From Coriobacteriales bacterium (GTDB taxonomy: Bacteria > Actinomycetota > Coriobacteriia > Coriobacteriales > UMGS124), in NCBI GenBank assembly GCA_048173955.1, contig DBEYOB010000022.1, positions 7,048-71,047 of the forward strand: a DNA stretch of 64,000 nucleotides. The letters run 5' to 3'. The position numbers were made by a program, and so were the translations under genes. This document shows, piece after piece, positions 3,590 to 52,085 of this stretch (its first letter is position 1; every line of letters starts with the position of its first letter). The notes beneath the pieces were generated by a model, which was not told the DNA's origin, did not search any database, and worked only from the letters and a program-made list of their open reading frames with translations.

Positions 3590-3801
3590 TTTCGAAGGAC
3601 GGCGCGAAGGGAGTGGTTCGAGAAAAGCGTATTATGGTCCCCATGATCCCGTAAAGAACGTCGCGACGTCGGGTGCGGGGGCGGCGGCCATATGGGGAGG
3701 CAGTCATGCGGGTGGCGTGCGCTCGGAATCGCCGACTCGGCCGAACCGCCGCCACGCATTCAAGGACTGCCCTGAAAAGGGCAAGCGCGCAGAGAGGGCG
3801 G

Positions 3802-4656
3802 ATGCTCATGATTTTTGCTTTTTCGGGCACTGGCAACAGCAGCTACGTTGCCCGCCGCATTGCGGAGGTTGCCGGACACCAGGTCCGCTCCATCAACGAC
3901 GCGCTTGCGGGCAGGGGGCTTGCGGCCATGCCTGCCTCGCCGATGGAGCCGCTGGTGTTCGTAGCGCCGACCTATGCCTGGCAGCTGCCCCATGTCGTGC
4001 GCGACTGGATTGAGCGCTCCGACTTCGGGGGAAAGGCCAAGACCTCTTCCCGCCGGGGCGAAGAACGCGGTCCGAGTTTGGCGAGCAGGGGCCATGGACC
4101 CGTGCGTGCGCAGGACGCGGGCAACTGGCGCGACGCCTACTTTGTCTTGACCTGCGGGGGAGAGATCGGCAACGCACCGGCGTCGATTGCGCGCCTGTGC
4201 AGACGCGCTGGCCTTGCGTATCGTGGCTGTGCGCAGATCGTCATGCCCGACAACTACATCGTCATGTTCGATCCTCCGACCGAGGAGGAGTCGCGCCGCA
4301 TCGTTGCCGACGCCGAACCGGCGATTCTCGAGGTTGCTGAGCGCATCCGCCGGGGCGACGATTTGATTCCGCCTCGCCCCGGGCTGGGCGACATCGTCAA
4401 AAGCGGGCCGGTGAACGCCCTGTTCAACGCTGTGTACATCAAGTCGGTGACGCCGTCGGCGACCGATGCGTGCACGGGTTGCGGCGCGTGCGTCAGGCTG
4501 TGTCCGCTCGGGAACATCCGTCTTGAGGCGGGCCGACCCGCATGGGGCAAGGCCTGCACGCACTGCATGGCGTGCGTGAGCGGCTGTCCGCAGGGGGCGG
4601 TCGAGTGCGGGAAGGGAACGCGGGGGAAGCGCCGGTATCGCTGCCCAGTTGGGTGA
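3802..4656 (+). CDS. EFR1-type flavodoxin-like / 2x[4Fe-4S] ferredoxin fusion protein
   Basis: The N-terminus MLMIFAFSGTGNSSYVARRIAE is a flavodoxin-like P-loop. The C-terminus has two CxxCxxCxxxCP motifs (CTGCGACVRLCP and CTHCMACVSGCP). RBS agagaggg lies upstream of the ATG at 3802. Confidence 0.8.
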   Translation: MLMIFAFSGTGNSSYVARRIAEVAGHQVRSINDALAGRGLAAMPASPMEPLVFVAPTYAWQLPHVVRDWIERSDFGGKAKTSSRRGEERGPSLASRGHGPVRAQDAGNWRDAYFVLTCGGEIGNAPASIARLCRRAGLAYRGCAQIVMPDNYIVMFDPPTEEESRRIVADAEPAILEVAERIRRGDDLIPPRPGLGDIVKSGPVNALFNAVYIKSVTPSATDACTGCGACVRLCPLGNIRLEAGRPAWGKACTHCMACVSGCPQGAVECGKGTRGKRRYRCPVG

Positions 4657-5093: not shown

Positions 5094-7085
5094 TTAGATC
5101 TCTTCGCCCAGGGCGACCTTGGCGGCAAGCCACCCGAACGTAGCGCTCTTGCCGCCGGCTGCTCCGGCGGTGATGTTGGGATAGGTGTCGCAGAAGTAAC
5201 GGCCTGCGTCATTGCCCACGCAATACAGGCCGTCGATTACGCTGCCGTCGGGACGCAGCGCCTGGAGCTTGGTGTTTACCACGATGCCGTCGAACGTGCA
5301 CAGGATGAGGCCCGAGATGTAGGCGCCGTAGAACGGGGGCTGCGTGTAGTCCTGCATGCGGAAGGACTCCTTGCCAAAGTCTTCGTCGACGCCCTTGGCG
5401 CACAGCTCGTTGTAACGCTCCACGGTGGCGACCAGGTTTTCGACAGGCAGTCCGAGCTGCTCGGCGAGCTCCTCGATGGTATCGGCGCATGCGAAGCAGT
5501 CGGGGTTGTCGATCATGAACTGACCGCGCTGCTCGGTGGTGTCTTCCTTCATGTACTCGACCTCGCCGTCCCACAGGGGCATGGGAACGCTGCGGGAGCA
5601 GCCGTCGGTGTCGTAGGCGAGGTTGTGCTCGTGGTAGTTGCCGGGGATGATCTCGACCATCACGCCACCCTTGCCGGCGATGGCGTGCAGGCGGTAGTCG
5701 TAGGGGCCGCTCTCGTTGCAGAAGCGCTCGCCGTTGAGGTCCACGGTGAGGAAGGGCTGGCTACCCATCCAGAATAGCTTGCTTGCGTCTTCCTCAAGTG
5801 CCTTCTGCACGTCGGTGGTGCCGATGGGCAGCGCCGCGCGCTCGAACAGCATACAGGCCGTCTTGTCGTCCTTGGCTGCCCCTGCCCACAGGCACGCCTT
5901 GATGCCGTCGCCCTGGTTGGTGATGGGTGCGCGCTCGCCGGCGTAGACCTTGGCGGCCTGGGGCTGCAGGGCGCGCATCATCTCGCGGTTGTGGGCATAG
6001 CCGCCCGTGGCCATGATGACGCCCTTTTCGGCGTTGATGCGGATGTGGTCACCGTCCTCGTTGGTAGCGTACACGCCGAGCACTTTGCCGGTCTCGTCCT
6101 GGACGAGTTCGACCATCGAGGTGTTGTAGCGAAACGTGCCGCCGTTCTCTTCGACGTAGGCCTCCACGACCTGGGCGGGGTCGAGGCCGAGATCCTTGTC
6201 GGCGAGCACCTCGTTGCACTCGATGAAGCCGGTGTAGCGCGCCTCCTCATGGTTGGCGTAGTTCATGAGGTGCGGGCGCAGTCCGGCCTGCTTGCACAGG
6301 TCGTCGTAGAAGTCGAAGATGGCGCCGCTCTTGTCGTACCACAGGTGGACGAGCTTGGGGTCGTTCCAGTAGTTGGAGTAGCGGCCGAAATCCTCGGTGA
6401 TCTCGTTGCGGTCGATGGCGATGCCGGCGCTCTGCTGAAGTTTCGTGTTGATGGCGCCCATCTGGTAGCGGATGCCCAGGCCCACGGCGGCCTTGTCGAT
6501 GATGAGCGGGCTCGCGCCGGACTGGACGGCGCTCATGGCGGCAAAGTGACCCGCGGTGCCCGAGCCCACGATGAGCAGCTCGCAGTCGACGACCTCGACG
6601 CAGTCCTCGTCGGTGATGACGGGCTTCTCGCCGAGCCAGGAGGGAACCTCGGGAGAGGCGGTGCCGGGGGTCGCAGAGGCGTCCTCGACGGGCGCCGCGG
6701 CGCCGGTCGAGGCCTGCTCGAGCGCTGAGGCCATGGCTTTCTTGGCGGCGCCCGAGGTGATGGTGGCGCCGCTCACGCCCTCGATGTCGTCGGAGCCTGC
6801 GGCGAGCAGCTGGGCCTGCAGCTCGTCCTGGGCTGCGGCGCCGATCTCGGCGGTCTCGCCCGAGGTGTCAACGACGATGTCGGAGATGACGCCGGAGTCG
6901 TCGACGGTGATCGTCACGGTCACGGCGCTCTCGAGACCGTCGGCCGAGCCGGTATAGGTGCCGGGGACCAGTGCCCCGGCGGCCTCGTCGGCAAACGCGT
7001 GGGTTCCGGCGGCGGCCATCAGGCCGGTGGCGGCCAGGGCTGCTCCGGCTCCCGCGATGAAGCTTCTGCGCGATACGTTCTCCAT
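5094..7085 (-). CDS. Tat-signal flavoprotein reductase: N-terminal FMN_bind domain plus fumarate-reductase/flavocytochrome-c-like FAD domain
   Basis: Start is MENVSRRSFIAGAGAALAATGLMAAAGTHAFA (twin-arginine signal). FMN_bind domain has flavinylation-type motif DIEGVSGATITS. Dinucleotide fold is LLIVGSGTAGHFAAMSA. C-terminal motifs IEELAEQLGLP..LVATVERYNELCAKGVDEDFGK are typical of this family. Confidence 0.9.
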   Translation of the reverse strand: MENVSRRSFIAGAGAALAATGLMAAAGTHAFADEAAGALVPGTYTGSADGLESAVTVTITVDDSGVISDIVVDTSGETAEIGAAAQDELQAQLLAAGSDDIEGVSGATITSGAAKKAMASALEQASTGAAAPVEDASATPGTASPEVPSWLGEKPVITDEDCVEVVDCELLIVGSGTAGHFAAMSAVQSGASPLIIDKAAVGLGIRYQMGAINTKLQQSAGIAIDRNEITEDFGRYSNYWNDPKLVHLWYDKSGAIFDFYDDLCKQAGLRPHLMNYANHEEARYTGFIECNEVLADKDLGLDPAQVVEAYVEENGGTFRYNTSMVELVQDETGKVLGVYATNEDGDHIRINAEKGVIMATGGYAHNREMMRALQPQAAKVYAGERAPITNQGDGIKACLWAGAAKDDKTACMLFERAALPIGTTDVQKALEEDASKLFWMGSQPFLTVDLNGERFCNESGPYDYRLHAIAGKGGVMVEIIPGNYHEHNLAYDTDGCSRSVPMPLWDGEVEYMKEDTTEQRGQFMIDNPDCFACADTIEELAEQLGLPVENLVATVERYNELCAKGVDEDFGKESFRMQDYTQPPFYGAYISGLILCTFDGIVVNTKLQALRPDGSVIDGLYCVGNDAGRYFCDTYPNITAGAAGGKSATFGWLAAKVALGEEI

Positions 7086-7300
7086 GACGTGCTCCTTTCT
7101 ATCGGAACGTTCGGTCCCTGCGTGACGGACACCACGATGCGCCGCGAAGGCCGTAGACGAAAGGCGGAGCGAGGGGTGAAACCGTAGATGCATGCCGGCG
7201 TCTGGGGGGTGTGACAAACCTCACCCCGTCTGCGAGCTGCATGCGCAAGGGCGTTTGCCCCATAATGGGGCGCGGACGCGTGCGAAGCGTTTCGAGGAAG

Positions 7301-8821
7301 ATGGGGGTTGAGATGGGGGAGCAGCTCAGGGAAGGCCCTGGCGGTATGGTGGGCGGGGCGGGGGGCGAGGGCCTGTTCCGCCGTGTTTGCGGACCGTATG
7401 TCCCCGCCCTGTTCGGCCTCTGCTTCGCCCTGGCGTTTCCCATCCTGTTCATGGGGCGCACCGCTCTGGGTGCCCGCTCTCTCGGCTCGGCATCGATATA
7501 CGTGTTTTACACCGTATCGATCGCGGTGCACGTCTGCGTTGCCGTTCGTTCGCGAAGGGGCTTTTCCTTTGCGGGGCGCATGCCGCTCCTCGCTGTGGCG
7601 ACCGCGGCGTGCGTCACGGGGGCGGTTCTGGTCATGCTGTCCATAGGCCTGCCGGGCAGGGTTGCTGCCGGCGTGCTTTTCCTTGTTGGCACGCCGCTTG
7701 CCTCCGCGGGCATCAGCCTGCTTATGCTCGCCTGGTACGAGCAGCTTGCCCGCTTGAGTATCGACTACGCGATGCTCTACTACATTGCGGCCGCGCTCGT
7801 TGCCGGGCTGCTGCGCCTTGTCCAGTTCTTTGCCCCTCTTGTCTCGGGGGCGGCCGGCGTCGTTGCGGACGCCTGCATATGCTGCCTGCCCGCCTTTGCC
7901 TTCGCCTGTTTCGCCGTCGGCTCGCGCAAGGTGGCCGGCCTGCCCTATGCGGCCGGCGAGCAGGTGAGTCCTCGTTGGGAGTTTCCCCAGCAGCCGGTGC
8001 TGCTCCTGGTCGTCTTCTACCTGGCTGCCAAGTTCTCGCTCAACCTGATCAGCGAGGACGACAAAGGCTACAGCGCCGTGGCCAATATCGCGTGTTACGG
8101 AATTCTGCTCGCCGTCGTTGTCATGGGGTTCAAGCGGTTCCCCTATCGGGCTATTCGCTATGCCGTGCTGCCACTTATGCTGGCTGGCATGCTGTGCCAG
8201 CTCAACGGTCCCGGCATGGCGGTGGCGGGTGCGGTGGCCACGCGTGCGGCGCAGGAGTTGCTGCTGGCGTTTGTGGTGTCGCTTCTGTTCGACCTGTCGT
8301 ATCGACGTGGTGTCAATGCTCTGTGGGTCTTTGGTCTCACCCTGGCTTGTGGCAATGCGGGCACCTTGGCCGCCAATCTTTTGACGGTGGAACTTGCCGG
8401 GTGGCTTGCCGCCGAGGGCGCGACGCGTCTGGCGGTGTCCGTGCTCATCGTGGTGGTGACGGTGGCGTTCATGGCGCTTGCCTCGGAGCGCAACCTTGCA
8501 GGCACCTGGGGTATCAAACCGTCCGATGCCCCGAAGGGGAATGCGCACTCTCCGAGCCTTGCCGAGCTTTGCTCGCGCGCGGCACGTCTCTACGACTTGA
8601 CCCGCCGTGAGGAGGACGTGCTGCTCATGCGTCTTGAGGGAGCCTCGCTCAAAGAGGTGGAGGAGCGGCTTTGCATTGCGCATAACACGGTGAAGAGCCA
8701 TGTGCGCCACATCTATGCCAAGCTTGGGGTGACGGGCGTCGAGGAGGCACGCGCGGTGGTCGAGGGACGCGAACACAAAACCGAGGTGGCTGACACTAAG
8801 TCGACATGCCGTACAGGATGA
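7301..8821 (+). CDS. Polytopic-membrane LuxR-family transcriptional regulator
   Basis: About 10-12 hydrophobic segments followed by a C-terminal LuxR/GerE HTH (LTRREEDVLLMRLEGASLKEVEERLCIAHNTVKSHVRHIYAKLGV). It is divergent from reductase 5094..7085. The start is uncertain (7301 or 7313). Confidence 0.8.
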   Translation: MGVEMGEQLREGPGGMVGGAGGEGLFRRVCGPYVPALFGLCFALAFPILFMGRTALGARSLGSASIYVFYTVSIAVHVCVAVRSRRGFSFAGRMPLLAVATAACVTGAVLVMLSIGLPGRVAAGVLFLVGTPLASAGISLLMLAWYEQLARLSIDYAMLYYIAAALVAGLLRLVQFFAPLVSGAAGVVADACICCLPAFAFACFAVGSRKVAGLPYAAGEQVSPRWEFPQQPVLLLVVFYLAAKFSLNLISEDDKGYSAVANIACYGILLAVVVMGFKRFPYRAIRYAVLPLMLAGMLCQLNGPGMAVAGAVATRAAQELLLAFVVSLLFDLSYRRGVNALWVFGLTLACGNAGTLAANLLTVELAGWLAAEGATRLAVSVLIVVVTVAFMALASERNLAGTWGIKPSDAPKGNAHSPSLAELCSRAARLYDLTRREEDVLLMRLEGASLKEVEERLCIAHNTVKSHVRHIYAKLGVTGVEEARAVVEGREHKTEVADTKSTCRTG

Positions 8822-9195: not shown

Positions 9196-11682
9196 CTACA
9201 GCGCGCGGGCGACGAGGTTCGCGTTGGTCACGGCGCGCTGGATGTTCCAGGGCTCGGCGCAGTCGCCCACGGCGTGCACCTCATAGCCGGCCGCCGTCAG
9301 CTCGTCCGCCAGGGCGGTGTTCGCCACGACGTCGCAGCCCTCCACCACGGTGTCGCACGGCACGACGACCTCGGCGCCCGATGCATCGGTGATGGACAGG
9401 CCGCCATCCACCACGCCGTTGACCGTGGCGCTGTTGTAGACCTTGACGCCGTTCACCACGAGCTGGGCGAGCGCGTACTTGCGGATCCAGCCGGACTGCT
9501 GGGCGTCCAGGTCGTCGAACGTCGACCCGTGCACGAGCGCGACCTGCTTGCCCATGGCCTGCAGGCGCAGGGCCATGTCGGTCGCTTGCAGGCTGCCGCC
9601 CAGCAGCGCGACGCTGCCGCCGCAGCGGCACCCCGCTGCGCTCTCGAAGGGGATGACCTGCACGGCGTCGCTGCCTTCGAGCAGGCCTTCCTGGCGCGCG
9701 CCGCCGGTCGCCACGACGATGGCGTCGGGCGCGACGGAGGCGACCAGCCCGGCGTCGACCGCGGTGCCCGTCTCCACCGTCACGCCGGCGAGCTCGAGCT
9801 GGCGGGTCAGGTAGGCGCGGTAGTCCTCGAGGCGCTCGTGGTCGCCCTTGACGCCCTGGGCGAACGACAGGCTGCGCCCGAGCAGGGGCTGCGCCTCATA
9901 GAGGGTCACGCTGTGGCCGCGCTGCGCGGCGATGCGCGCGGCCTCCATGCCGGCGGGGCCGCCGCCAATCACCATGACGTTGCGGGGCGTCTCGGCGGGC
10001 ACCGGGTCGAAGCCCTCGGGCATCGCCTCGAGGTACGCGTGGCGCCAGGCGGCGCTGACGCGACACGACGAGGTGAACCTGCGGCTCGTGGATATGTTGT
10101 CGTGGCAGTGGAAGCAGCGCGTGCAAGGCATGGCCTCGTCGCGGCGGCCCTCCTGCAGCTTGTTGGGCAGCTCGGGGTCGACGTTGAGCGGGCGGTTCAT
10201 GTAGACCAGGTCGACCTTGCCGTCGGCCACGGCCTGGTTGATGAGGTCGGGCGCGGTGCGTGGGTCCATGTAGCCGGCGCAGCCCACGGGGACGCTCACG
10301 GCCTCCTTGATGGCGGTCGCCATGGGGATGAAGGCGCCCACGCCCGAGTGCGTCCCGTCCTCCAGCCCCTCGAAGGCGACGTCATAATCGAACAGGTGGC
10401 CGAAGCCGTCGACGCCGTCGGCGTGCCAGGCGAAGTGGTTGGTGTCGGGCGCCCAGCAGTTGGCCTCCTGGCCGGGGGTGCCCACGCGCACCTGGATGGC
10501 GTCGGTGCCCGCCGCCTCGAGGATTTGGGCGATCTGACGGGTCTCCTCGATGGAGAGGCAGGTCGGGTCGGTGCCGGGGGCGTTGTCGTACTCCTCGACG
10601 GCGTTGATGAGCGTCAGGACGACGAAGTCCTCGCCGCAGGCCTCCTTGACGGCGCGGATCATGTCGGTGAAGAACTTGCAACGGCTCTCGATGGTCTGGG
10701 GGCCGTACTCGTCTTCGCGCTGGTTCTTGCGGCGCGAGAGGAACGCGTTGAGGCCGTCCTGCGTGGCACCCTTGATCTCGATGGCGTCGCCGCCGGCCGC
10801 CTGGAAGCGCTGGGCAGCCGCCGCGACCTCGGCCACGTGGGCCTGGATGGTCTCGATGCTGTCCTCGTTCACGGTGGGCTCGCCGACCGGGCCGCCGTAG
10901 CTCACCTGCAGGCCGACGTAGGCGCCGCCCTGGTGGATGCGGTCGACGAGCGTCGCGGCGGTCGCGATGCCCTCCTCGACCGTCATGCCCTCGGCGGGAA
11001 CCTCGCCGGGCCCGATGCCCAGGTTGTCGAAGGCGCCGGCAAGCACGATCATGGCCACGCCGCCGTCGGCCATCTTGGCGTACAGGTCGAAGGCAACCGG
11101 GTTGATGCCCTCGTACTCGTCGGGCGACCAGGGGCTCGAGCCGGCCGACTTGATGATGCGGTTGCGCAGGGTGAGCGAGCCGATCTGGATGGGCTCGAAC
11201 AGGGCCGAGTAGTCGGTGGTGCAGGCGTCGTACGACTCGTCCTGCGGGGTGAGGGGCAGGTTGCGGAAGGCGTCCAGGCCGAGCGCCTGGAGCCAGCAGT
11301 CCTCGACGCCGTCGACGATGGCCTTGGTGCAAATGCTCGCGCCCGTGACGGCGTCGACTCCCTGGGTTCTGCCGGCCGCGGCGACGGCCTCGCAGTACGC
11401 GGCGCACGCGTCGGCAAGGGGGGTGAAGTAGTCGTTGTCCGACGTCTTGACGACCTTGTAGCCCACCGACGTCAGTTTGCCGTCCTCGAACGAGCAGGTG
11501 ACGACGACGTCGGCGTAGCCGGTGGTCTGGGCGCTCTCGTAGGTGCCCTGCGCCGCCCCGGAGGCTGCCGGCGCGGCCTCGTCGGCCACGGCGCTGTCCG
11601 CCCCGGCCGCAAGGGCCGACCCGATGACGCCGAGGGCCGCCGCCTTCACGAGGTTCCTGCGGGTAATCTCTGCAACTGCCAT
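9196..11682 (-). CDS. Tat-signal three-module flavoenzyme: FMN_bind + Old-Yellow-Enzyme/2,4-dienoyl-CoA-reductase-like TIM barrel with Cys cluster + FAD/NAD(P) Rossmann domain
   Basis: Start is MAVAEITRRNLVKAAALGVIGSALAAGA (RR signal, RBS aggagaaagg). FMN_bind motif is GVDAVTGASICT. OYE-like IQIGSLTLRNRIIKSAG. Cys cluster CTRCFHC-x13-C. Rossmann motif VMVIGGGPAGMEAARIAAQRGHSVTLYE. Confidence 0.88.
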   Translation of the reverse strand: MAVAEITRRNLVKAAALGVIGSALAAGADSAVADEAAPAASGAAQGTYESAQTTGYADVVVTCSFEDGKLTSVGYKVVKTSDNDYFTPLADACAAYCEAVAAAGRTQGVDAVTGASICTKAIVDGVEDCWLQALGLDAFRNLPLTPQDESYDACTTDYSALFEPIQIGSLTLRNRIIKSAGSSPWSPDEYEGINPVAFDLYAKMADGGVAMIVLAGAFDNLGIGPGEVPAEGMTVEEGIATAATLVDRIHQGGAYVGLQVSYGGPVGEPTVNEDSIETIQAHVAEVAAAAQRFQAAGGDAIEIKGATQDGLNAFLSRRKNQREDEYGPQTIESRCKFFTDMIRAVKEACGEDFVVLTLINAVEEYDNAPGTDPTCLSIEETRQIAQILEAAGTDAIQVRVGTPGQEANCWAPDTNHFAWHADGVDGFGHLFDYDVAFEGLEDGTHSGVGAFIPMATAIKEAVSVPVGCAGYMDPRTAPDLINQAVADGKVDLVYMNRPLNVDPELPNKLQEGRRDEAMPCTRCFHCHDNISTSRRFTSSCRVSAAWRHAYLEAMPEGFDPVPAETPRNVMVIGGGPAGMEAARIAAQRGHSVTLYEAQPLLGRSLSFAQGVKGDHERLEDYRAYLTRQLELAGVTVETGTAVDAGLVASVAPDAIVVATGGARQEGLLEGSDAVQVIPFESAAGCRCGGSVALLGGSLQATDMALRLQAMGKQVALVHGSTFDDLDAQQSGWIRKYALAQLVVNGVKVYNSATVNGVVDGGLSITDASGAEVVVPCDTVVEGCDVVANTALADELTAAGYEVHAVGDCAEPWNIQRAVTNANLVARAL

Positions 11683-11978
11683 GAACGTTCCCTTTCTCCT
11701 GGATGCACGCCGCACGGACGCCCCTGCCCCGCCGCACGGCTGCGCTCGGACGTCCCCATGGTGCCCGCCTCGGCCCGGCGACGTGGTACAGAAAACGGCC
11801 TATAGGGGCGGCCGGCGGGTGCCTATTTTTTCTGGTCCGGCATCTACCTGGCATTTTGCGCCCGACCGGTACGAGCCTCCCGTCTGCCTTCGCCGCCCTT
11901 CGGCGCGCTCCGGCGCGTTTTGGCGCATCAACCGCTACAATGGCAGGCGTGGGATTCGAGACGCGGGGGGTGCTGTGC

Positions 11979-13484
11979 ATGGCGGGTGACGATGTGTCAA
12001 AGACTTGGCGCCTGCCGTCGGTCAAGGTCGTCGGCTCGAGCCTTTCGGTGGCTTTTCTCGGCTATGCGCTTGTGACGTGCTGGTCGTCGTCGACCAATGG
12101 GATCAGCTGCGCGGGCGACCTGTCCGACCCCGCCTCGCTCTTCGCGGTGCTGGTGACGCTCTTCGACGCGCTGGCGCTGGTGTGCGCGGCGTGCCTGAGC
12201 TCGCGGATTGGGTCGCTGCGCTCGGGCCGCCGTGTCCCCGCGATTGCCGGGCTTGTGGTGGCCGCCTCGGTGCTCGCCGGGTTGGTCGACGCGGCCCCGG
12301 TCCCGGTAGCGGTGCTCGCGGTCGCCGCGCTTGTCACGGGTGCGGCGAAGGCCCTCGCAGTGCTCGTGTGGATGGAGGCGTTCTGTACGCTCAACCTGCG
12401 CGGCGCATGCGTCGCCTTCGTCGCTGCCTACCTGTTCAGCAAAGTTCTCGGTGCCGTGCCCCCGTTGACGGGCGATCTCGTCGAGCGCGCGCTCTTTGCC
12501 GTCGCCGGGGCGGTGGGCGTGCTGGCGGTGTCGTACGCGACGAGCTCCGACGGGCCGGCGTCCGAGGCGGAGGGGGACGCCGGGGCGCGCCGCTGGAGCT
12601 TTCCGCTCCACCCGACCCTGCTCATGGGCGTCTACTCCTTTGCGTACTCGTTTGTGCTCGACGCCGGGTTCGGCCGGATGCCGGGCGCCATCGACCAGGA
12701 GTACGCCGGCCTGGCCGTGCGCCTCCTGGTCCTGGCGGCCATGGTGCTGCTGTTTGCACGCTTCGACGTGAAGGTCCTGAGCGTCGCCTCCGCGCCGATC
12801 GTGTGCGCCGGCCTGCTCTGTACGACGGGCTCGTTCGGCTGGGCGGCCCCGGCGGCGACGGTCCTGGTGGCCCTCGGGTTCTACTGTATGTCGACCTTTA
12901 TCTACCTGTTGCTGTTCAACATCTCGTTCCGCTACGGCGTGAACCCCCTGTGGCTGTTCGGGTTCTCACGCGCGGCCCGCGCCGTGAGCACCCTGTGCGC
13001 GGGCTTTGCCGTGACCGGCCTGGAGATCGAGGGTCCCGGGCCTGCGTGCGACGTGTTGGCCGGCGTCCTGCTGGTCGTCATTGTCGCCGCGGCGGTGACG
13101 CTTGCCGCGGGGAAGGGCTTCGCGACGACGTGGGGCATCCGCCCGATCGAGGACGGGGCCGCGGAGGACGACGCCCCCGCGCGGCAGGGAGGCCGGGGGC
13201 GTTCGCTGCTGCTGTCCGGCGAGGCGTTCGACGATCGGCTGTCGTACATCGCCTACGTCTGGGGCCTCACCAAGCGCGAGGAGGAGGTCCTGGGGCTGCT
13301 CGCGCGCGGCATGGGCGTGCCCGACATCGAGCGCGAGCTGCTCATCTCGAACGGTACGGTGCGCAACCACGTGCAGCATGTCTACAAGAAGCTCGGCCTG
13401 CACTCGCGCGACGACGTGCGGGCGTTCATGGCGGACCCGGACGCGTGGGGCGACAAGGCTTCCGCGGCGGTCGACGGGGCATGA
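11979..13484 (+). CDS. Polytopic-membrane LuxR-family transcriptional regulator
   Basis: Multiple TM segments, then LTKREEEVLGLLARGMGVPDIERELLISNGTVRNHVQHVYKKLGL. It is divergent from 9196..11682. Start is ATG 11979 (G-rich RBS 8 nt upstream); 11940 is an alternative. Confidence 0.8.
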   Translation: MAGDDVSKTWRLPSVKVVGSSLSVAFLGYALVTCWSSSTNGISCAGDLSDPASLFAVLVTLFDALALVCAACLSSRIGSLRSGRRVPAIAGLVVAASVLAGLVDAAPVPVAVLAVAALVTGAAKALAVLVWMEAFCTLNLRGACVAFVAAYLFSKVLGAVPPLTGDLVERALFAVAGAVGVLAVSYATSSDGPASEAEGDAGARRWSFPLHPTLLMGVYSFAYSFVLDAGFGRMPGAIDQEYAGLAVRLLVLAAMVLLFARFDVKVLSVASAPIVCAGLLCTTGSFGWAAPAATVLVALGFYCMSTFIYLLLFNISFRYGVNPLWLFGFSRAARAVSTLCAGFAVTGLEIEGPGPACDVLAGVLLVVIVAAAVTLAAGKGFATTWGIRPIEDGAAEDDAPARQGGRGRSLLLSGEAFDDRLSYIAYVWGLTKREEEVLGLLARGMGVPDIERELLISNGTVRNHVQHVYKKLGLHSRDDVRAFMADPDAWGDKASAAVDGA

Positions 13485-13545: not shown

Positions 13546-15318
13546 CTACCCCTCCAGCCACACCTTGTCGAGCACAGCGGCGTTGTCGGGGCGGAAGTAC
13601 AGGTTGTGCACGCGGCTCGACGCCACGCAGCTATGCCGGTAGAACAGCAGCGGCACCACGGGGAAATCCTCCGCGAGGATGGCGTTGGCCTGCTGGTAGC
13701 CCGCGGTGCGCTCATCGGCGTCGAGCAGCTGCGCGGCGGCCAGGAACGTGTCGTCGAACTCGGGGTTCGAGTAGAACGACCAGTTGCCGCCCGTCCCGGT
13801 GCGGAACAGGTCGTTGAAGACGTAGTACGGCGACGGTACGAACCCGACCCAGCCGAGGCGCCCGAACTGGTAGTTGCCGCTCTCGAGCGCGTCGAGGTAG
13901 GTGGCCCACTCCTGCGTCTGCACCTGCGCGTCCACGCCGAGGCGCGCCAGGTCGGCCTGCACCATGAGCAGGATTGCCTCGTTCGAGGAGCCGGGGTTGC
14001 AGCCCAGCGTGATCGAGAGGCCGCGGCTGCCGTTCTCGTCGGCGGGGTAACCGGCCATGTCGAAATGCTCCGCCGCCTTGGCGTCGTCGTTGGTCGCGGG
14101 GCAGTGGGCCCACCCGCCCGCCTCGTAGCCGGGCATGATCGGCGTGAGCATGTTGTCGGCGGGAAGGCGCGTGCCCTGCATCACGGTGTCGCAGATTGCC
14201 TGGCGGTTGATGGCGTACGACATGCCGATGCGCACGTCCTTGTTCCCGGCGACCTCGTCGTCGAGGTTGCACAGGATGTAGTAGGTCGAGTTCTCGTCGC
14301 CGGTGAACGTCTGCTGTCCGGGGTTGGCGACGTAGCCGTTGTCGCCCGCCTCGCCGAACTGCGCGACGGTCGCCTCGAACAGGCCCGACGGGATGAACGT
14401 GTAGTCGAGGTTGCCGGCCTGGAACTCGGTCCAGGCGGTCTGGTCGTCGCTGAACACCTGGAAGTCGACCCCGTCGAGGAACGGCTTGTCGCCCCAGTAC
14501 CCGTCGAAGCGCTTGACGCGGATGTATTGGCCGTCGACCCACTCGCCGTCCATCATGAACGGGCCGTTGCCGATCGGGGCGATGCGGAAGGCTTGGAAGT
14601 CCTCCTCGGTGTCGGTGCATCCGGCGGGGACCGGGGCGGTCACCACGTCGGCGCACACGGCGTCGAACTCGGCGAACGGGAAGGCCAGGTTCACGACGAG
14701 CGTGTAGTCGTCGGGACATTCGACGTCGAGCTCGTCCGCCGTGCCCGCCATCATCTCGGTCGCTCCTTTGACCTGCTCGATCTTGTAGCCGACCGCCGAG
14801 GGGGCGGGCTTGAAGTCCGCGCGGCAGATGCGCTCCCACGCGTACTTGTAGTCGTGCGAGGTGACCGGCTGCCCGTTGTGGAACGTCGCGTCCTGGCGCA
14901 GGTGGAACGTGTACTGCGTGGCGTCCTCGTTGACCTCGTAGCTCTCGCACGCCTGCGGCACGACGCGGTTGTTCGCATAGTCGTAGCGGGTCAGCGTGTC
15001 GAAGAGGTTCGAGGCGATCTGGATGCCGTGGTTCTCCTCCGCGCCGAACGGCTCGATGGCGCCGGGGTTGGCGACGTACCACTTGAGGATGCCGCCCGCA
15101 ACGGCGCCATCGGTGTTCTCGCCATACGGGGCAACCTGGGCGTCCGCGGTGTCGGCGGCATCCGCCCCCGTGGCCTCTTCGGCGGGCTCCGCGTCGGCGA
15201 ATGCGGATCGGGTGCGCGCCCCAAGGGCGAGGGCCGCTGCGGTTGCGGCAGCGCCGGCGAGGAAGGTTCTGCGGGAAAGGTCGGCACGGGCGAAGCTGGT
15301 CGATGCGGACGTGCACAT
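13546..15318 (-). CDS. Family-5 (peptide/nickel/opine-type) ABC substrate-binding protein with twin-arginine-type signal; no cognate permease nearby
   Basis: Start is MCTSASTSFARADLSRRTFLAGAAATAAALALG with RBS aaggagg. Body motifs (YVANPGAIEPFGAEENHG, FHNGQPVTSHDYKYAWER, RVKRFDGYWG, GWVGFVPSPYYVF) are typical of SBP_bac_5. Confidence 0.85.
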   Translation of the reverse strand: MCTSASTSFARADLSRRTFLAGAAATAAALALGARTRSAFADAEPAEEATGADAADTADAQVAPYGENTDGAVAGGILKWYVANPGAIEPFGAEENHGIQIASNLFDTLTRYDYANNRVVPQACESYEVNEDATQYTFHLRQDATFHNGQPVTSHDYKYAWERICRADFKPAPSAVGYKIEQVKGATEMMAGTADELDVECPDDYTLVVNLAFPFAEFDAVCADVVTAPVPAGCTDTEEDFQAFRIAPIGNGPFMMDGEWVDGQYIRVKRFDGYWGDKPFLDGVDFQVFSDDQTAWTEFQAGNLDYTFIPSGLFEATVAQFGEAGDNGYVANPGQQTFTGDENSTYYILCNLDDEVAGNKDVRIGMSYAINRQAICDTVMQGTRLPADNMLTPIMPGYEAGGWAHCPATNDDAKAAEHFDMAGYPADENGSRGLSITLGCNPGSSNEAILLMVQADLARLGVDAQVQTQEWATYLDALESGNYQFGRLGWVGFVPSPYYVFNDLFRTGTGGNWSFYSNPEFDDTFLAAAQLLDADERTAGYQQANAILAEDFPVVPLLFYRHSCVASSRVHNLYFRPDNAAVLDKVWLEG

Positions 15319-15604
15319 GGCAAACCTCCTTATGTCGCATGATGCGCCCCGGCATGCAATCTTCGGGACCCTTCGCGACGCCGTCGCGGGACGTCCGATG
15401 CCGGGTGGTTTGCGCACGTATTATCCGACAACGACCGTTGTCGGCGCCATGGCGCGCCGGATGGGTCCGGGTGAGCGGCATAAAGCGGGCGGCATAAAGG
15501 CGCCCGGCGGCAGGGCGGCGCAGATGGCCGTCCCGCCGCCGGGCTTCAGGGGTCGTGCTTCGAGTTGGGCCCGACCGCGCGTGTGATTGGGCCCTGTGGG
15601 CCTC

Positions 15605-16040: not shown

Positions 16041-17594
16041 TCAGCCCTTCTCGTCGCGCTCGCGCTCCCTCTCTATCAGGTCGAGAAGTTCTTGGCGACC
16101 ATGGATTCCCAATGTGGCGTAGAGCGACTTGCGGTACGATCTCACCGTGTTGGGGGAGAGACCTAAAGTGCGTGCAATGTGGTCGACATCTCGTCCTGTT
16201 GTCAGGAAGGACATGACCTCGGACTGCCGTTTTGAGAGGCCATAAGCGTGCGCGATGCTGTCGCAGGCTTCTTCAATGCTTGTTTGTGCGGGCTCGCGTG
16301 GAGACGGGCTGATTCCAGAAACAGGGCTGTCAATCTGGCCGGAGCCGTCCTTTTGCGCGCTTTCGCCCGAGCGGGCTCGTTTTGCCAGGGGTGCGATGAT
16401 AAAGAAGGCCGGAATCATCAGGACATACAGCAGGAGAAGGCCTGCGATGTACGGCATTATGTTGAGGGTCCCCTGGTTCACAAGCCTCTCGATGGCAAGG
16501 TGTGCCGTGTCGGTCAGATACATGAAGCCTGCAAACGCACCGTAAAGGGGTAGTGCGGCGACGCCCGCCTTTTCGGCACATTCCAGACTGCTTATGACCA
16601 TGAGAAGCGACACCAGAAAGTAGCAGCCGTTGCCGATGAACAATACGACCCATCCCATGTCTTCGTCCAACAGGAACAATATGAATATGATGCTCGCGAA
16701 GATGGGGAGGAAGATTCCATACAGGCGCGGGAGCGGGATGCCCCTGCGCAGCCTGAACCAAACAACGGCCAGAATGACGAGGCAAACAATGTGCGACAGC
16801 GCCACAATCGTCTCATGCGAGAGCGGCAGCGAGTCGGATGCGCCAAAAACGGAGCTGGCGATGGGCGTGATGAGCGTCAGCGCCACGCCGCACAGTATGG
16901 ACAGCGGAAGCCCTTCGGGTATCCGGGCTTTGCTCGGTTCGCTCTCATGCCGAGCGAAGTCGACCGTGCGCGCATTGAGCGCTAGGCATGCCGTTCCCGC
17001 AATGCCGCATACGCCGTAGACGACGAGCATCCTCGCGGTTTCGGAAGGCAGCTGGCCGACGCCGAACGTCAGGGCGATATGGGCGAGCGACCCCCAGAGG
17101 AGCAGCCGCTTGGCACGAGAGAGCTCGAACGACGCAAGCATGCGGAACCATTGGCAAAACCCGCACGCCTTGCCGAACGCGAGGGCGATCGAGCCGATGT
17201 AGAGCGCGGGAGGGGCGTCAAAAGTAAGGCCGCAGCCCACGAGCAACAATGCCGCCACGAGCGAACCGATGGTCGCTGCGGTTAAGGAGCCCCGACCGAG
17301 TCTTCCCCTCACCGCCCACCATGCAACGACAAAGAACGAGAGCGCATAACAGAGCGATTGGACGATGCCGATCGGCGTCACGATGCCCGTTCCGTCTGCG
17401 AACGGGTATGTCGTAGAGCTCGATGCGGCGAAGGTGAGCCAAACGGCGTTGCCCGCCCAGTAGAGGACGGATGTGCGGTCGAGCGCAAAGTCGGTTATCC
17501 GCACGCCGTTCGCCCCCTTGCCAAATCTCGCACGCCGTGTCTGTGTCGACAATTGTACGCGGTATGGTCCGTCGGCATTTAAGAAAATCGGCAA
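16041..17594 (-). CDS. Polytopic-membrane LuxR-family transcriptional regulator
   Basis: TM-rich body, then LSKRQSEVMSFLTTGRDVDHIARTLGLSPNTVRSYRKSLYATLGI. GC3 is visibly lower than in neighbouring genes (many ata/tta/ttt codons around 16300-16900). The TTG start at 17594 is uncertain. Confidence 0.8.
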   Translation of the reverse strand: MPIFLNADGPYRVQLSTQTRRARFGKGANGVRITDFALDRTSVLYWAGNAVWLTFAASSSTTYPFADGTGIVTPIGIVQSLCYALSFFVVAWWAVRGRLGRGSLTAATIGSLVAALLLVGCGLTFDAPPALYIGSIALAFGKACGFCQWFRMLASFELSRAKRLLLWGSLAHIALTFGVGQLPSETARMLVVYGVCGIAGTACLALNARTVDFARHESEPSKARIPEGLPLSILCGVALTLITPIASSVFGASDSLPLSHETIVALSHIVCLVILAVVWFRLRRGIPLPRLYGIFLPIFASIIFILFLLDEDMGWVVLFIGNGCYFLVSLLMVISSLECAEKAGVAALPLYGAFAGFMYLTDTAHLAIERLVNQGTLNIMPYIAGLLLLYVLMIPAFFIIAPLAKRARSGESAQKDGSGQIDSPVSGISPSPREPAQTSIEEACDSIAHAYGLSKRQSEVMSFLTTGRDVDHIARTLGLSPNTVRSYRKSLYATLGIHGRQELLDLIERERERDEKG

Positions 17595-17761
17595 CCTGCG
17601 CGCCGCATTGCCGCGCTACCCCTTTTGCGGGGGCATTCGGTGGGTGGGCACCATCGGTGGCAACCCCTTGCAGGGGCGTAGCGGCGAGGCCTGCCCCGAC
17701 CGTATCGTTGGTGCTGTCCGCACGGCAATATACCAATCGGTATCGTGAAAGGGGATGCGCT

Positions 17762-19435
17762 ATGACTATGGATCGCAGGTCGTTTCTCAAGGGGAGTGCC
17801 GCGGTGGCAGGCGGCGTAGCGGCCGTCGGTGCAATGGGCGCGACTGCGTTTGCCGACGAGGCTGAGGCCCCGTCGTGGGGCACCGTCGAGGTCGACGAGG
17901 ACGTCATTGCCGCGGTGGATGCCGAGAAGAGCGACGAGCCCCCCGCGTGGCTTGGCACGCCGCCCGACATCAGCGTCGACGACTGCGTCGAGACAGTCGA
18001 GACTGATATCGTGGTGGTCGGCTCCGCGTTGGCGGGCGTGCTCTCCGCGTATTCGGCCATCCAGAACGGTGCACAGGTTGTGATGATCGAGCGCAACGGT
18101 GCACCGCACATCAGCGGTTCGGGCATCGGCTTCTTCAACTCCGAATACCAGAAGGCCGGCGGACAGCCCGAGCACAACGAGCAGATCATCATGAACAAGG
18201 TGATCAACGAGGGGAACCTGCGCGTCGACGCGGCCCTGGTTGCCATGTGGGCCTACCACAGCGGCGAGATTCTCGACGAGCTCGAGGAGAACGTGCTACA
18301 GCCTGCTGGGCTGCCGGGCACCATCAGCATCGGCGAGCCGCTCGACGAGGAGGAGCTCGACCAGTACGAGGAGGCCTTCCACGTCGATTTCGACGACACG
18401 GGCAACGACAGCCTCGAGAAGTTCGACTACATCTTCCACGATTGGATCCGCGAGCATGGTGGCACCATCGCGTTCAACACCTGCGCTCGGGTGCTCACGC
18501 AGGACGAGGACGGCACGGTGACCGGCCTCATCGCGACCAATGAGAACGGCGAGTACGTGTATTACAAGGCGAACAAGGCCGTTATCATGTGCGCCGGCTC
18601 GTACGGCGGTAACGAGGAGATGGTCGACGCTCTGTGCTATCCGTCGATGGCCCAGTTCATCAAGAAGTACAGCGGCTATAACGCCAAGGCGAGCGAGACG
18701 GCGCCTATCACCACGGGCGAGAAGATGGACGACGGTATCGGCCACAGGATGATGTGCTGGGCCGGCGCCATCATGGAGGAAATCGACCCGTCGTATCAGG
18801 CATGGTCGAACACGGGCTACTGGATCGCCGCCCCGCTGGCCGTCAACAACAAGGGCGAGCGCTTCTTCAACGAGGCCATCTCGTCGCTGTCCTCGAGCTT
18901 TGCCATCTTCGAGCTTCCTGATGGGGCAAACTACGTGTGGCAGATCATGGGTTCCGACGACTTCGACTTCCCGGCTCTGCTGCCCATGCCCGGCGCCAAC
19001 CGCGAGATGATGGAGGCCATGGCTGCCGGCTCAGAGATGTACGAGGCCGACACCATCGAGGAGCTCGCCGGTCTGATCGGCGTGCCGGCCGACACGCTCG
19101 TGGCGACGGTCGAGCGCTACAACGAGCTGTGCGCGCTCGGAAAGGACGAGGATTACGGAAAGGGCGCGAACCACCTGCATCCCATCGACACCCCGCCGTT
19201 CAAGGCATACAAGGAAGCCTACTACTTCTTTGGCATGAGCTCTGGTGTCAAGGTGAACAAGAACCTGCAAGTCGTTGATGCCAACTGGGATCCCATCCCC
19301 CATCTGTATGCGGCTGGCAACTGCGTCGGTTGGCGCATGGGCTCCGGATACCAGAATGTGATTCCGGGCCTGTGCAACGCCTATGCGGCCGTGCATGGCT
19401 ACTACGCAGGCAAGAACGCGGCGGCCGAGGCCTAA
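17762..19435 (+). CDS. Tat-signal FAD-dependent reductase (fumarate-reductase/flavocytochrome-c-like), no FMN_bind domain
   Basis: Start is MTMDRRSFLKGSAAVAGGVAAVGAMGATAFA. It shares the paralog motif PAWLGTPPDISVDDCVETVETDIVVVGSALAG. C-terminal IEELAGLIGVPADTLVATVERYNELCALGKDEDYGK matches the other two FAD_binding_2-type paralogs. Confidence 0.88.
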   Translation: MTMDRRSFLKGSAAVAGGVAAVGAMGATAFADEAEAPSWGTVEVDEDVIAAVDAEKSDEPPAWLGTPPDISVDDCVETVETDIVVVGSALAGVLSAYSAIQNGAQVVMIERNGAPHISGSGIGFFNSEYQKAGGQPEHNEQIIMNKVINEGNLRVDAALVAMWAYHSGEILDELEENVLQPAGLPGTISIGEPLDEEELDQYEEAFHVDFDDTGNDSLEKFDYIFHDWIREHGGTIAFNTCARVLTQDEDGTVTGLIATNENGEYVYYKANKAVIMCAGSYGGNEEMVDALCYPSMAQFIKKYSGYNAKASETAPITTGEKMDDGIGHRMMCWAGAIMEEIDPSYQAWSNTGYWIAAPLAVNNKGERFFNEAISSLSSSFAIFELPDGANYVWQIMGSDDFDFPALLPMPGANREMMEAMAAGSEMYEADTIEELAGLIGVPADTLVATVERYNELCALGKDEDYGKGANHLHPIDTPPFKAYKEAYYFFGMSSGVKVNKNLQVVDANWDPIPHLYAAGNCVGWRMGSGYQNVIPGLCNAYAAVHGYYAGKNAAAEA

Positions 19436-23827: not shown

Positions 23828-24153
23828 GAGATATCCCTCTTCTCTGAACGGGGGTGTGATTGAGCCAGCGGCCATGCATGGCACATCGGCGGGGTGTATA
23901 TGATGCTGAATCGAGGGTTTGCGATGACTCCTGCAGGATGTAGACAGTTTACGAACATTTGTTCTACTTTGCAAGAGTTCTCGACGATTTCGGGTTGTCA
24001 GAACTTCGCCGTGCACGCCTCCTTTACAATCATGCGGCAAGGGGCGCCCCGCATTGCGGCGACCGCTGGCCGGCATAGCCCAGCCTGGCCCGGTGCGGGC
24101 GACGCCTGCCTTTCGGATGGTTTCGGGCGGACCTCTCGGGGGAGGCGTGCGGC

Positions 24154-47000: not shown

Positions 47001-47044
47001 TTGCGATGAGCAGCGTACGCCCGATTGTCGATGGAGGTGAGTCA

Positions 47045-48212: not shown

Positions 48213-49783
<1,571 letters not shown>

Positions 49784-49785
49784 CC

Positions 49786-52085
<2,300 letters not shown>

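Follow-up and report, generated by a model that had tools for sequence, protein, structure and literature searches.

A gut member of the Coriobacteriia, Coriobacteriales bacterium, encodes a protein of the FadH/Old Yellow Enzyme (OYE) iron-sulfur flavoprotein family that starts with a predicted twin-arginine (Tat) signal peptide and an FMN_bind domain and carries a second, NAD(P)H-type Rossmann domain. This raises the question of whether the enzyme is exported with its Rossmann module repurposed, or is not exported at all, two outcomes that the preliminary description of the locus had set side by side. Here we address this question within a window of 64,000 nt (contig DBEYOB010000022.1, positions 7,048-71,047, forward strand); all coordinates below are those of the window.

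Results

In the ORF list, the gene extends from a GTG start over 9196..11715 (-), equivalent to 839 aa. Translation from the ATG at 11682 yields a complete coding sequence of 828 aa plus stop at 9196..11682 (-), with AGGAGAAAGGG located about 8-17 nt upstream, in the position of a ribosome-binding site, and the N-terminus so obtained agrees with those of homologues beginning with MAVAELTRR (84% identity) and MATLECTRR (79% identity). By Pfam, AF2 and Foldseek, the chain comprises the predicted Tat signal, FMN_bind domain, OYE TIM barrel, [4Fe-4S] linker, FAD domain and second Rossmann domain; the 828-aa length, the four parts initially listed and the divergent polytopic LuxR gene were each recovered at the place given for them (ORF list, motifs, Pfam). 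The full-length protein scored 113.7 bits against Oxidored_FMN, 57.6 bits against Pyr_redox_2 and 21.4 bits against FMN_bind, the last slightly below the Pfam cut-off of 22. The predicted structure was confident (pLDDT 92.1, pTM 0.89) and about 55 full-length homologues (43-84% identity) share the architecture, which together argue against a chance pattern. The best PDB sequence matches were 2-naphthoyl-CoA reductase (NCR; E = 9e-49) and FadH (E = 4e-47), and a Foldseek search with the model returned the same two enzymes (NCR 6qkg, TM 0.82; FadH 1ps9, TM 0.80). NCBIfam matches lay far under their cut-offs (BilR-long, 268 vs 750; BaiCD, 210 vs 825). In a tree, a single clade of 115 tips unites the Tat-bearing proteins and contains no cytoplasmic sequence; its members come from Coriobacteriia, Oscillospirales and Chloroflexota; no established name for it was found in the sources searched. 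Conservation within this clade was counted on a 114-sequence alignment, and 39 cytoplasmic relatives served as the control set for the loop and active-site comparisons.

The predicted signal peptide covers residues 1-33 (11584..11682, (-)), as judged from sequence, clade conservation, hydropathy and the AF2 model, and consists of T7-R-R-N-L-V-K13 (nt 11644-11664), followed by AAALGVIGSALAAGA and the putative cleavage site A31-V-A33|D-E. R8 is present in 114/114 and R9 in 112/114 clade members, the other two having RK. When the best 120 homologues were compared with 42 cytoplasmic relatives, the RR motif occurred in 113 of the former, 47 of which also carry a lipobox-like Cys, with RK in two more and mostly truncated gene calls making up the remainder; a single cytoplasmic relative had the motif, and that one belongs to the Tat-bearing clade. 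The AxA|DEA c-region is common to the reductase and a neighbouring canonical Tat/FMN_bind/FAD_binding_2 reductase, and pLDDT falls below 50 at residues 1-4 and 25-38. Export thus looks like a clade-wide trait, and the reductase itself is probably exported. If its N-terminus were instead a cytoplasm-facing anchor or non-functional, the protein would be an ordinary cytoplasmic Fe-S flavoenzyme that depends on NAD(P)H and is flavinylated by an ApbE inside the cell, like Klebsiella FRD and Vibrio ARD. There are indeed ApbE proteins that reside in the cytoplasm, as well as cytoplasmic FMN_bind enzymes with an NADH-oxidising OYE-like domain, and the Pfam TAT_signal HMM gave no match to the N-terminus of the reductase, where N-L-V-K stands against the consensus x-F-L-K. 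However, the RR motif, which cytoplasmic relatives lack, is nearly invariant in the clade, cleavage sites of the lipoprotein or AxA type are found in many of its members, and hydropathy analysis of the reductase found no segment of transmembrane strength, the h-region included, which speaks against the membrane anchor raised in the preliminary description. The domain order is also unlike that of FRD and ARD, and a FAD_binding_2 catalytic domain is missing.

The FMN_bind domain (residues ~45-135; 11278..11550, (-)) was assigned by Pfam, profile search and conservation. When taken alone, the N-terminal domain scored 26.4 bits against FMN_bind, as a match shared by 25/25 aligned homologous domains, and a profile built from it matched the covalent-FMN domains 8p2b, 8p2a, NqrC and RnfG. 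It carries the ApbE-type motif D110-AVTGA-S116 (nt 11335-11355), in which D, G and A never vary and 55/56 sequences have S or T as the acceptor; the motif makes Ser116 (nt 11335-11337) the predicted site of covalent FMN attachment. The domain is present in roughly half of the homologues and absent from the rest (~730 aa), near whose genes no dedicated partner gene was seen in the contexts examined; the 64,000-nt window yielded neither an apbE nor a tat gene. Since FMN_bind-bearing members occur at at least three places in the clade tree, the distribution suggests a repeated, and hence probably selected, fusion.

The OYE-type TIM barrel, which is predicted to hold the non-covalent FMN and the substrate site, spans residues 158-515 (10138..11211, (-)) and contains a ~40-aa insertion, N408..G449 (nt 10336-10461). 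In alignments with FadH and 39 cytoplasmic relatives, whose active site is mostly H-x-x-H-G-Y (HGDR in BilR), the clade has K-G-A-T-x-D (K304 to D309; nt 10753-10773), such that the H/H/Y triad becomes K/T/D. At the proton-donor position NCR keeps Tyr, whereas the clade has Asp. The enzyme probably reduces C=C bonds, although the replacement of both the catalytic Tyr and His of OYE/FadH makes even ene-reduction, as a reaction type, an extrapolation. A K/T/D active site that matches no known reductase would also suit an exported but oxidative enzyme, namely a dehydrogenase passing electrons from an extracellular substrate through FMN_bind to the membrane chain, and the three-domain family does include amine dehydrogenases whose electrons go to a protein acceptor (trimethylamine and histamine dehydrogenases, TMADH and HADH). 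Against this, the closest sequences are all reductases (NCR and FadH, with BilR and BaiCD by NCBIfam), and the gene lies in an island of Tat/FMN_bind flavin reductases and LuxR sensors in an anaerobe. We regard an oxidative role as improbable.

The linker downstream of the barrel holds the [4Fe-4S] ligand motif C520-x2-C523-x2-C526-x13-C540 (10063..10125, (-)), which aligns to the cluster cysteines of FadH. All four Cys are present in 114/114 sequences and are flanked by the clade-specific residues H527 (113/114) and R541 (114/114). The C-x2-C-x2-C spacing was correctly read at the outset but has no diagnostic value, being common among cytoplasmic relatives too and thus not peculiar to the clade.

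The GGGPAG motif, initially taken to mark a site for FAD/NAD(P)H, is indeed present but belongs to the FAD-binding loop, V571-IGGGPAG-578 (nt 9949-9972), and the would-be NAD(P)H loop is the stretch LLGGSLQATD (residues 693-702). The first part of the FAD domain covers residues 561-680 (9643..10002, (-); Pyr_redox_2, Pyr_redox and conservation) and includes the clade motif H615-E-R617 (nt 9829-9846); its C-terminal part, residues 790-828 (9199..9315, (-)), was delimited by conservation and model secondary structure and carries the FAD motif A-V-G-D-C (nt 9259-9273). Judged by the alignment, the FAD site is kept across the clade (G573, G575 and acidic 596, 114/114 each; G578, 113; G806, 112/114). 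These figures bear on the possibility that the enzyme is exported and flavinylated, with the covalent FMN feeding the cluster or the barrel FMN directly and both Rossmann domains persisting as a structural relic. TMADH and HADH, which are close structural relatives, work in this manner, with ADP in the FAD site and electrons leaving through the cluster (PMC6502838), and the linker LNPQDESYD, which joins FMN_bind to the N-terminus of the barrel, is short, conserved and ordered in the model. The strictly constrained FAD fingerprints and the high conservation of the second domain are unlike a relic, however, and we consider direct feeding unlikely, if worth keeping in view.

The second alpha/beta domain occupies residues 681-789 (9316..9642, (-)). 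By alignment, its dinucleotide loop (nt 9577-9606) is no longer canonical across the clade, unlike that of FadH and 39 cytoplasmic relatives, which is mostly GxGxxG: position 697, the middle Gly, is Asn in 49, Gly in 32 (28%) and Ser in 22 of the 114 sequences. The remainder of the domain is strongly conserved (Q699 in 111, A700 in 112 and D702 in 114 of 114; also K712 and W732). At the end of beta2 (V-A-L-V-H-G in the reductase, nt 9523-9543) the clade has His in 81 and Asn in 26 of 114, as compared with Glu in 19 and Asp in 6 of the 39 cytoplasmic controls. About 28% of the members keep G-x-G-x-x-A, a legitimate variant of the NADPH-type loop. Since the domain is otherwise so well conserved, dinucleotide binding remains compatible with the sequence, and the second domain may bind one. 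The retained G-x-G-x-x-A also speaks for an unexported, NAD(P)H-dependent enzyme, and the lost acidic or basic specificity residue at the end of beta2 against it; with the nearly invariant export signal, we judge that reading very improbable. The degenerate loop, together with the lost acidic beta2 residue, argues for NAD(P)H independence, for which NCR may serve as a precedent. NCR has no NADPH site, and its FAD lies at the surface, where one-electron entry from a protein donor is thought to occur at a postulated dock lined by N540 and I542 (PMC6502838). In our alignment both residues fall in the loop equivalent to the second loop of the reductase, N540 at position 697, where NCR has Asn for the middle Gly. 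Overall, the evidence (clade-wide RR motif, kept FAD site, degenerate second loop and NCR precedent) favours a repurposed Rossmann domain over a lack of export.

Divergent from the reductase gene, 11979..13484 (+) encodes a LuxR-family regulator of 501 aa with a C-terminal GerE HTH (residues 430-480; Pfam 51.8 bits) preceded by about eight or more hydrophobic segments (hydropathy). The intergenic region, 11683..11978, is presumed from the gene arrangement to be a shared control region; no sigma-70-like promoter or inverted repeat was detected in it. The reductase gene is monocistronic, and a GerE regulator adjoins the clade gene in 6/7 independent contexts. Clade genes sit among Tat/FMN_bind flavin reductases; here the immediate neighbour, 5094..7085, is a FAD_binding_2 reductase of this kind, and four such reductase/regulator pairs lie within the window. 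The membrane part of the LuxR protein is 31% identical to that of the regulator paired with the neighbouring reductase. The early suggestion that this protein is the substrate sensor for the reductase gene fits the context. The arrangement is that of the reductase arsenals of Eggerthellaceae, which in related bacteria serve electron-acceptor use (Little et al.), a further point against an oxidative role.

Discussion

We think it reasonably likely that the reductase is a Tat-exported, ApbE-flavinylated and LuxR-regulated extracytosolic enzyme on a FadH/NCR-type scaffold. It would fold in the cytoplasm, be loaded there with FMN, FAD and [4Fe-4S], and be exported folded by Tat, with the signal cut after A31-V-A33. 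Once outside the membrane, the protein would receive FMN on Ser116 from an ApbE-type flavin transferase, and the membrane electron-transport chain would reduce this covalent FMN through an intermediate carrier. Single electrons would then pass to FAD, within or close to the pocket where cytoplasmic relatives hold NAD(P)H, and on through the cluster to the TIM-barrel FMN, which would reduce a small-molecule substrate. The second Rossmann domain would be a structural and docking module, not a pyridine-nucleotide site, and the polytopic LuxR would switch expression on upon sensing the substrate.

The proposed enzyme shares features with several known systems. NCR, a type III aryl-CoA reductase, is closest by sequence and fold and has the same three domains with a four-Cys cluster linker, but is cytoplasmic, lacks a signal peptide and FMN_bind, and works at very low potential on a CoA thioester; its NADPH site is blocked by W459, where the clade has Arg or His. 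Cytoplasmic FadH-type enzymes likewise combine an FMN-bearing OYE barrel, [4Fe-4S] and FAD in a Rossmann domain, wired FAD to cluster to FMN. They are mostly described as NAD(P)H-dependent, with the exception of IsmB, which also does not use NAD(P)H efficiently. TMADH and HADH have the same three-domain fold and Rossmann domains that make no use of NAD(P)H, and their electron exchange with ETF, a protein partner, runs via the cluster (PMC6502838), yet they are oxidative cytoplasmic amine dehydrogenases with ADP in the FAD site and neither FMN_bind nor an export signal.

The design logic is that of the extracytosolic FAD_binding_2 reductases (Shewanella UrdA, Listeria FrdA, and the cinnamate, itaconate and other reductases of Eggerthella lenta): a signal peptide, FMN_bind with [S/T]GA[S/T], a soluble reductase module and a monocistronic gene, with electrons supplied, as proposed here, by chain components encoded elsewhere. 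In the window and related contigs examined, FAD_binding_2 reductase genes are regulator-paired too. The catalytic superfamily differs (PF00724 plus cluster vs PF00890), as does the number of redox centres (four vs two). To our knowledge, the other known proteins with PF00724 and PF04205 in one chain are Klebsiella pneumoniae NADH:fumarate reductase and Vibrio ARD and Crd, which are OYE-like/FMN_bind/FAD_binding_2 proteins. In these, covalent FMN shuttles electrons between an NADH-oxidising OYE-like input domain and a catalytic FAD_binding_2 output domain; unlike the reductase, they are cytoplasmic, lack an Fe-S cluster and differ in domain order.

The surveys that defined reductase arsenals counted only PF00384 and PF00890. 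The export signal and the covalent-flavin domain, found here in a PF00724 protein, suggest that this enzyme probably acts extracellularly, drawing its electrons from the membrane and not from NAD(P)H.

Start codon and predicted export signal

The reductase open reading frame spans 9196..11715 on the minus strand, and its likeliest start is the ATG at 11682, which gives a product of 828 aa. This ATG is preceded by AGGAGAAAGGG, and the homologues of 84% and 79% identity begin with MAVAELTRR and MATLECTRR, respectively; together, these two observations make it the most plausible start. Read from this position, the N-terminus contains T7-RRNLVK-13, followed by AAALGVIGSALAAGA and then by A31-V-A33|DE. 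On motif reading, the protein therefore displays a [ST]-R-R-x-F-L-K-like motif, a moderately hydrophobic h-region, here rich in Ala and Gly, and an AxA c-region, as expected of a Tat signal. The TAT_signal HMM (PF10518) returned no score for this particular N-terminus; homologues do score, for instance the protein P0016 with 29.4 bits.

Among the best 120 homologues, 113 carry a [ST]RRxF[LIV]K-type motif near the N-terminus and two more have RK in its place, while the leftover sequences lacking the motif are mostly obvious truncations or mis-called genes. A lipobox-like Cys is present as well in 47 of the 113 RR-bearing proteins. As a control we used 42 FadH-like (2,4-dienoyl-CoA reductase-like) genes collected by a profile scan of genome contigs with the family alignment, the output of which consisted largely of generic cytoplasmic genes of this type. 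Only one of them encodes a twin-arginine motif, and it is itself a clade member, from Ca. Limivicinus, at 39% identity; in the other 41 the OYE barrel begins directly at the N-terminus.

In most public gene calls the same protein (P0001 and P0121; loci L001-L003) begins at an internal GTG (V12 in LVKAAALG; window 11650-11715) and is 817 aa long; in the 90%-identity cluster to which the reductase belongs, nine of 13 members have this start. Since the internal GTG drops the twin-arginine motif, signal-peptide surveys would score such proteins as cytoplasmic.

Fold and family membership

Every element listed in the preliminary description, namely the Tat-type N-terminus, DAVTGAS, the OYE barrel, the cysteine cluster and GGGPAG (within V571-IGGGPAG), was found in the 828-aa product. 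Pfam assigned 113.7 bits to Oxidored_FMN and 57.6 bits to Pyr_redox_2. The AlphaFold2 prediction proposed at that stage was run from 114 sequences and gave a confident model (pLDDT 92.1, pTM 0.89), in which disorder is limited to residues 1-4 and 25-38, as expected for a signal peptide. Foldseek placed 2-naphthoyl-CoA reductase (NCR; 6qkg, TM 0.82) first, followed by E. coli FadH (1ps9, TM 0.80), histamine dehydrogenase (HADH) and trimethylamine dehydrogenase (TMADH), and a sequence search of the PDB produced the same ranking. The FadH/NCR-type arrangement of an OYE TIM barrel and two α/β domains is thus confirmed, with TM values of 0.80-0.82 over about 720 columns. The cysteines C520-x2-C523-x2-C526-x13-C540 lie in the linker that joins the barrel to the FAD domain and align with the cluster cysteines of FadH. 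The C-x2-C-x2-C spacing recorded in the preliminary description is real, but it does not distinguish the clade, as it is common in cytoplasmic relatives also.

Several characterized families were considered and rejected. BilR is defined by an HGDR active-site motif (PMC10769871); our protein has K-G-A-T-Q-D-G instead and reaches 268 bits against NF045599, whose cut-off is 750. The BaiCD model NF041087 gave 210.5 bits against a cut-off of 825, NCBIfam scores for the mycofactocin OYEs fell far under their cut-offs, and the resveratrol reductase RER of E. lenta is of another enzyme class. Membership in PF00890, the UrdA/FrdA-type family, was likewise discarded, the protein being devoid of the FAD_binding_2 catalytic domain with its active-site arginines and matching solely through a 40-residue GxG segment (residues 569-610). 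The enzyme appears to resemble the extracytosolic respiratory flavin reductases of PF00890 in its working, not in its membership.

A clade of long and short forms

The reductase belongs to a clade and is not a one-off. Protein searches retrieved about 55 full-length homologues (~825-860 aa) together with some 60 of only ~720-775 aa, which align from residue ~140 onward and have no FMN_bind domain. A neighbour-joining tree built on the catalytic body, without bootstrap support, groups the Tat-bearing proteins in one clade of 115 tips that contains no cytoplasmic sequence. Members bearing FMN_bind occupy one large subclade, which includes our protein, and two or more further spots among the short forms; P0091 and P0093, two of the homologues, have a more canonical FMN_bind. 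This scatter suggests that the domain was gained or lost repeatedly. The named sources of clade members are Rubneribacter, Ca. Aphodovivens, "Coriobacteriia bacterium", Oscillospiraceae and Bellilinea, and all of these proteins are annotated merely as "FAD-dependent oxidoreductase". Long and short forms alike carry, before the TIM barrel, an L-N-P-Q-D-E-S-Y-D...T-T-D segment (residues 141-157, window ~11212-11262) in which conservation reaches 90% or more at N145, P146 and Q147; the model shows this segment as ordered, and cytoplasmic relatives do not have it.

The FMN_bind domain and its flavinylation motif

In the full-length protein FMN_bind scored 21.4 bits, just below the Pfam cut-off of 22, whereas the N-terminal domain alone reached 26.4 bits against the same gathering score, and all 25 aligned homologous domains matched. 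Precomputed PF04205 matches exist for only three of the ~55 full-length homologues. Two annotation artefacts, the internal GTG gene calls and this narrowly subthreshold score, are thus able to hide the clade from surveys. A profile built from the FMN_bind domains of the clade matches two covalent-FMN domains of known structure, 8p2b and 8p2a, as well as NqrC and RnfG. D110-AVTGA-S116 fits the flavinylation motif D-x-x-[ST]-G-A-[ST], and in the alignment of the FMN_bind-bearing members the D, G and A of the motif are invariant, while 55 of 56 sequences have S or T at the acceptor position.

The domain (window 11278-11550, residues 45-135) represents a divergent subtype, with an S-x-x-D-Y-F insertion replacing the usual E-T-x-G-I-G. 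It contains up to four conserved Cys (V-x-C-x-F, Y-C, GA[ST]-x-C and C-x-x-Q-A), so that disulfides are possible. When a docking surface was sought through positions conserved solely in FMN_bind-bearing members, seven scattered positions and no signal emerged. No ApbE match was obtained among the ORFs scanned in the 64-kb window, and no tat genes were seen within it.

When the FMN_bind-domain profile was run against 1.84 billion representatives, the output consisted mainly of multi-flavinylated proteins, which accumulate score over their repeats, and of N-terminal fragments of the same fusion, so that it gave no family size. The multi-flavinylated proteins include very large ones (P0203, P0212) with 5 to 15 tandem FMN_bind repeats, and the N-terminus of P0203 is of the RK type (SISRKALAKG). 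Such proteins might act in trans as electron conduits for the short forms devoid of FMN_bind.

Residues kept and residues changed

Residue frequencies were compared between 114 clade members and 39 cytoplasmic relatives. The four cluster cysteines (C520, C523, C526 and C540) are present in all 114 members, as are G573 and G575 of the FAD loop and an acidic residue (E/D596) at the end of the first β2 strand; G578 is invariant or nearly so, and G806 is kept in 112 of 114.

The active site is altered. At the positions of OYE1 H191/N194/Y196, of which the Tyr corresponds to the FadH proton donor Y166, the clade has K304 (108 of 114), T307 (T or S in 107) and D309 (108), vs H, H and Y in 24, 23 and 25 of the 39 controls. 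Our protein accordingly lacks both the His/His(Asn) pair that binds substrate and the Tyr that donates the proton in the OYE/FadH catalytic machinery. The barrel also contains an insertion of about 40 residues that is conserved in the clade (NCWAPD...DGSHSG), and among the changed positions are H527 and R541 on either side of the cluster ligands.

The preliminary description had singled out the second dinucleotide site, and there the alignment gives a divided answer. The loop reads G-[AG]-x-x-Q-A-x-D, with G695 in 113, Q699 in 111, A700 in 112 and D702 in all 114 members, and it is noncanonical in that the middle glycine persists in just 32, the remainder having mostly Asn (49) or Ser (22), as in our protein (G-G-S-L-Q-A). 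Likewise, the second β2 strand ends in His (81) or Asn (26), vs Glu or Asp in 25 of the 39 controls. On the other side, GxGxxA is retained by 28% of the clade and the second domain as a whole is strongly conserved; from this pattern we consider it likely that the domain binds some ligand or partner, and the ligand may still be a dinucleotide. A 41-residue FadH segment absent from the clade was at first read as deletion of an NADPH element; most cytoplasmic controls are without it too, which makes it a non-diagnostic insertion of the FadH lineage.

Regulator and gene surroundings

The divergent polytopic LuxR postulated at 11979..13484 was borne out as a 501-aa protein in which many hydrophobic segments precede a C-terminal GerE/LuxR HTH. 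The intergenic region 11683-11978 contains no inverted repeat and no sigma-70-like promoter. In six of seven independent contexts the clade gene forms a monocistronic unit that has a GerE regulator as its pair; none of the seven has a conserved electron-transfer partner near the clade gene, and no donor gene for the short forms is visible nearby.

Four reductase/LuxR pairs make the window a reductase island, with the same layout as the Eggerthellaceae reductase arsenals. The other three pairs contain FAD_binding_2 enzymes, two of them with FMN_bind, in one case C-terminal. A Tat- and FMN_bind-bearing FAD_binding_2 reductase (5094-7085) is paired with the LuxR at 7211-8821, and the two LuxRs that flank our gene are paralogues with 31% identity through the membrane part. 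A further LuxR (16041-17594) is paired with the FAD_binding_2 reductase at 17471-19435, these ORFs overlapping and their starts being uncertain, and the reductase with C-terminal FMN_bind (36290-38332) adjoins LuxR-like genes at 33359-34501 and 34452-35945.

Directly downstream of the divergent LuxR, a family-5 solute-binding protein (13546-15417, minus strand; SBP_bac_5, 268 bits) has a Pfam-significant TAT signal. Its gene adjoins the locus in the same-species contigs L001-L003 and is not beside the 79%-identical homologue in locus L090; genes for an ABC permease or ATPase did not turn up next to it. An ORF at 3673-4656 on the plus strand combines a flavodoxin-like N-terminus (MLMIFAFSGTGNS...) with a C-terminal 4Fe-4S dicluster (Fer4), and is conserved beside the neighbouring flavin reductase in L001-L003. 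We considered it as a membrane partner and set it aside as not an obvious one, the protein being cytoplasmic-looking and having no hydrophobic segment.

In L002 (contig_13448, 1.56 Mb; apparently the same species) the locus is flanked by pairs of IS3-family transposases, the LuxR of the neighbouring reductase is shortened to 365 aa vs ~500, and at a distance of about 8 kb there is a second Tat-OYE paralogue, a short form of 748 aa. Elsewhere in the window are a PD-(D/E)XK transposase-like ORF (22943-24076), the F-type ATP synthase operon (45835-52085; atpB 45835-46635, atpA 48212-49783, atpG 49786-50667, atpD 50673-52085) and murA (52556-53833). Exact-sequence matches of these genes assign the window to MAGs of uncultured Coriobacteriia, and AtpD belongs to a 90%-identity cluster in which the members with a name are "Coriobacteriaceae bacterium" MAGs.

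Discussion

Taken together, the sequence data are best explained by a Tat-exported, flavinylated and LuxR-controlled Fe-S flavoenzyme reductase whose NAD(P)H domain has probably been repurposed. The FadH/NCR three-domain family already includes members with Rossmann domains that do not use NAD(P)H. The NADPH site of DCR (2,4-dienoyl-CoA reductase) is absent in NCR, where a near-surface FAD accepts electrons from a ferredoxin-like donor, and in TMADH and HADH electrons are exchanged between the cluster and ETF (PMC6502838). In our HMMER alignment, NCR N540 coincides with the middle glycine lost in the clade, at which Asn is also the commonest clade residue. IsmB, a gut Fe-S flavoenzyme, uses NAD(P)H inefficiently. 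Given these precedents, an exported enzyme with an FAD fed by a protein-bound flavin would be a modest step from known biochemistry. Electron donation by the covalent FMN of an FMN_bind domain is a known job in extracytosolic urocanate and fumarate reductases, and FMN_bind relays electrons between domains in FRD and ARD, the cytoplasmic enzymes of Klebsiella and Vibrio. The covalent FMN of the fused domain would be the obvious donor to the FAD.

Fe-S flavoenzymes such as BaiCD, BilR, IsmB and daidzein reductase are among the best-known agents of gut microbial reductions, and they are described as two-domain NAD(P)H/flavin enzymes, with no signal peptide or extracytosolic form mentioned (PMC7371122, PMC11574389). 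Exported or FMN_bind-fused versions are mentioned neither in these two papers, nor in the flavinylation surveys PMC8238504, PMC11334425 and PMC12052999, nor in the paper on the Eggerthellaceae arsenals, which were surveyed for PF00384 and PF00890 only. A full-text literature search likewise yielded no account of Fe-S flavoenzymes that are exported or flavinylated, bearing in mind that absence there is not proof of absence.

A broader proposal, to which we give slightly less than an even chance, is that in gut anaerobes Tat-exported Fe-S flavoenzymes stand beside the molybdopterin and FAD_binding_2 enzymes as a third superfamily of reductases for extracytosolic respiration, with the ancestral NAD(P)H pocket turned into the port of a covalent-FMN domain, whether that domain is fused or acts in trans, and the K/T/D site and 40-residue insertion acting on gut metabolites. 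The respiratory reductase arsenals known from Eggerthellaceae and related bacteria would then gain a third superfamily, and the exported clade would provide a natural case of a pyridine-nucleotide enzyme rewired for membrane electrons via a covalent flavin. It would also point to further substrates, each of them probably sensed by a LuxR of its own.
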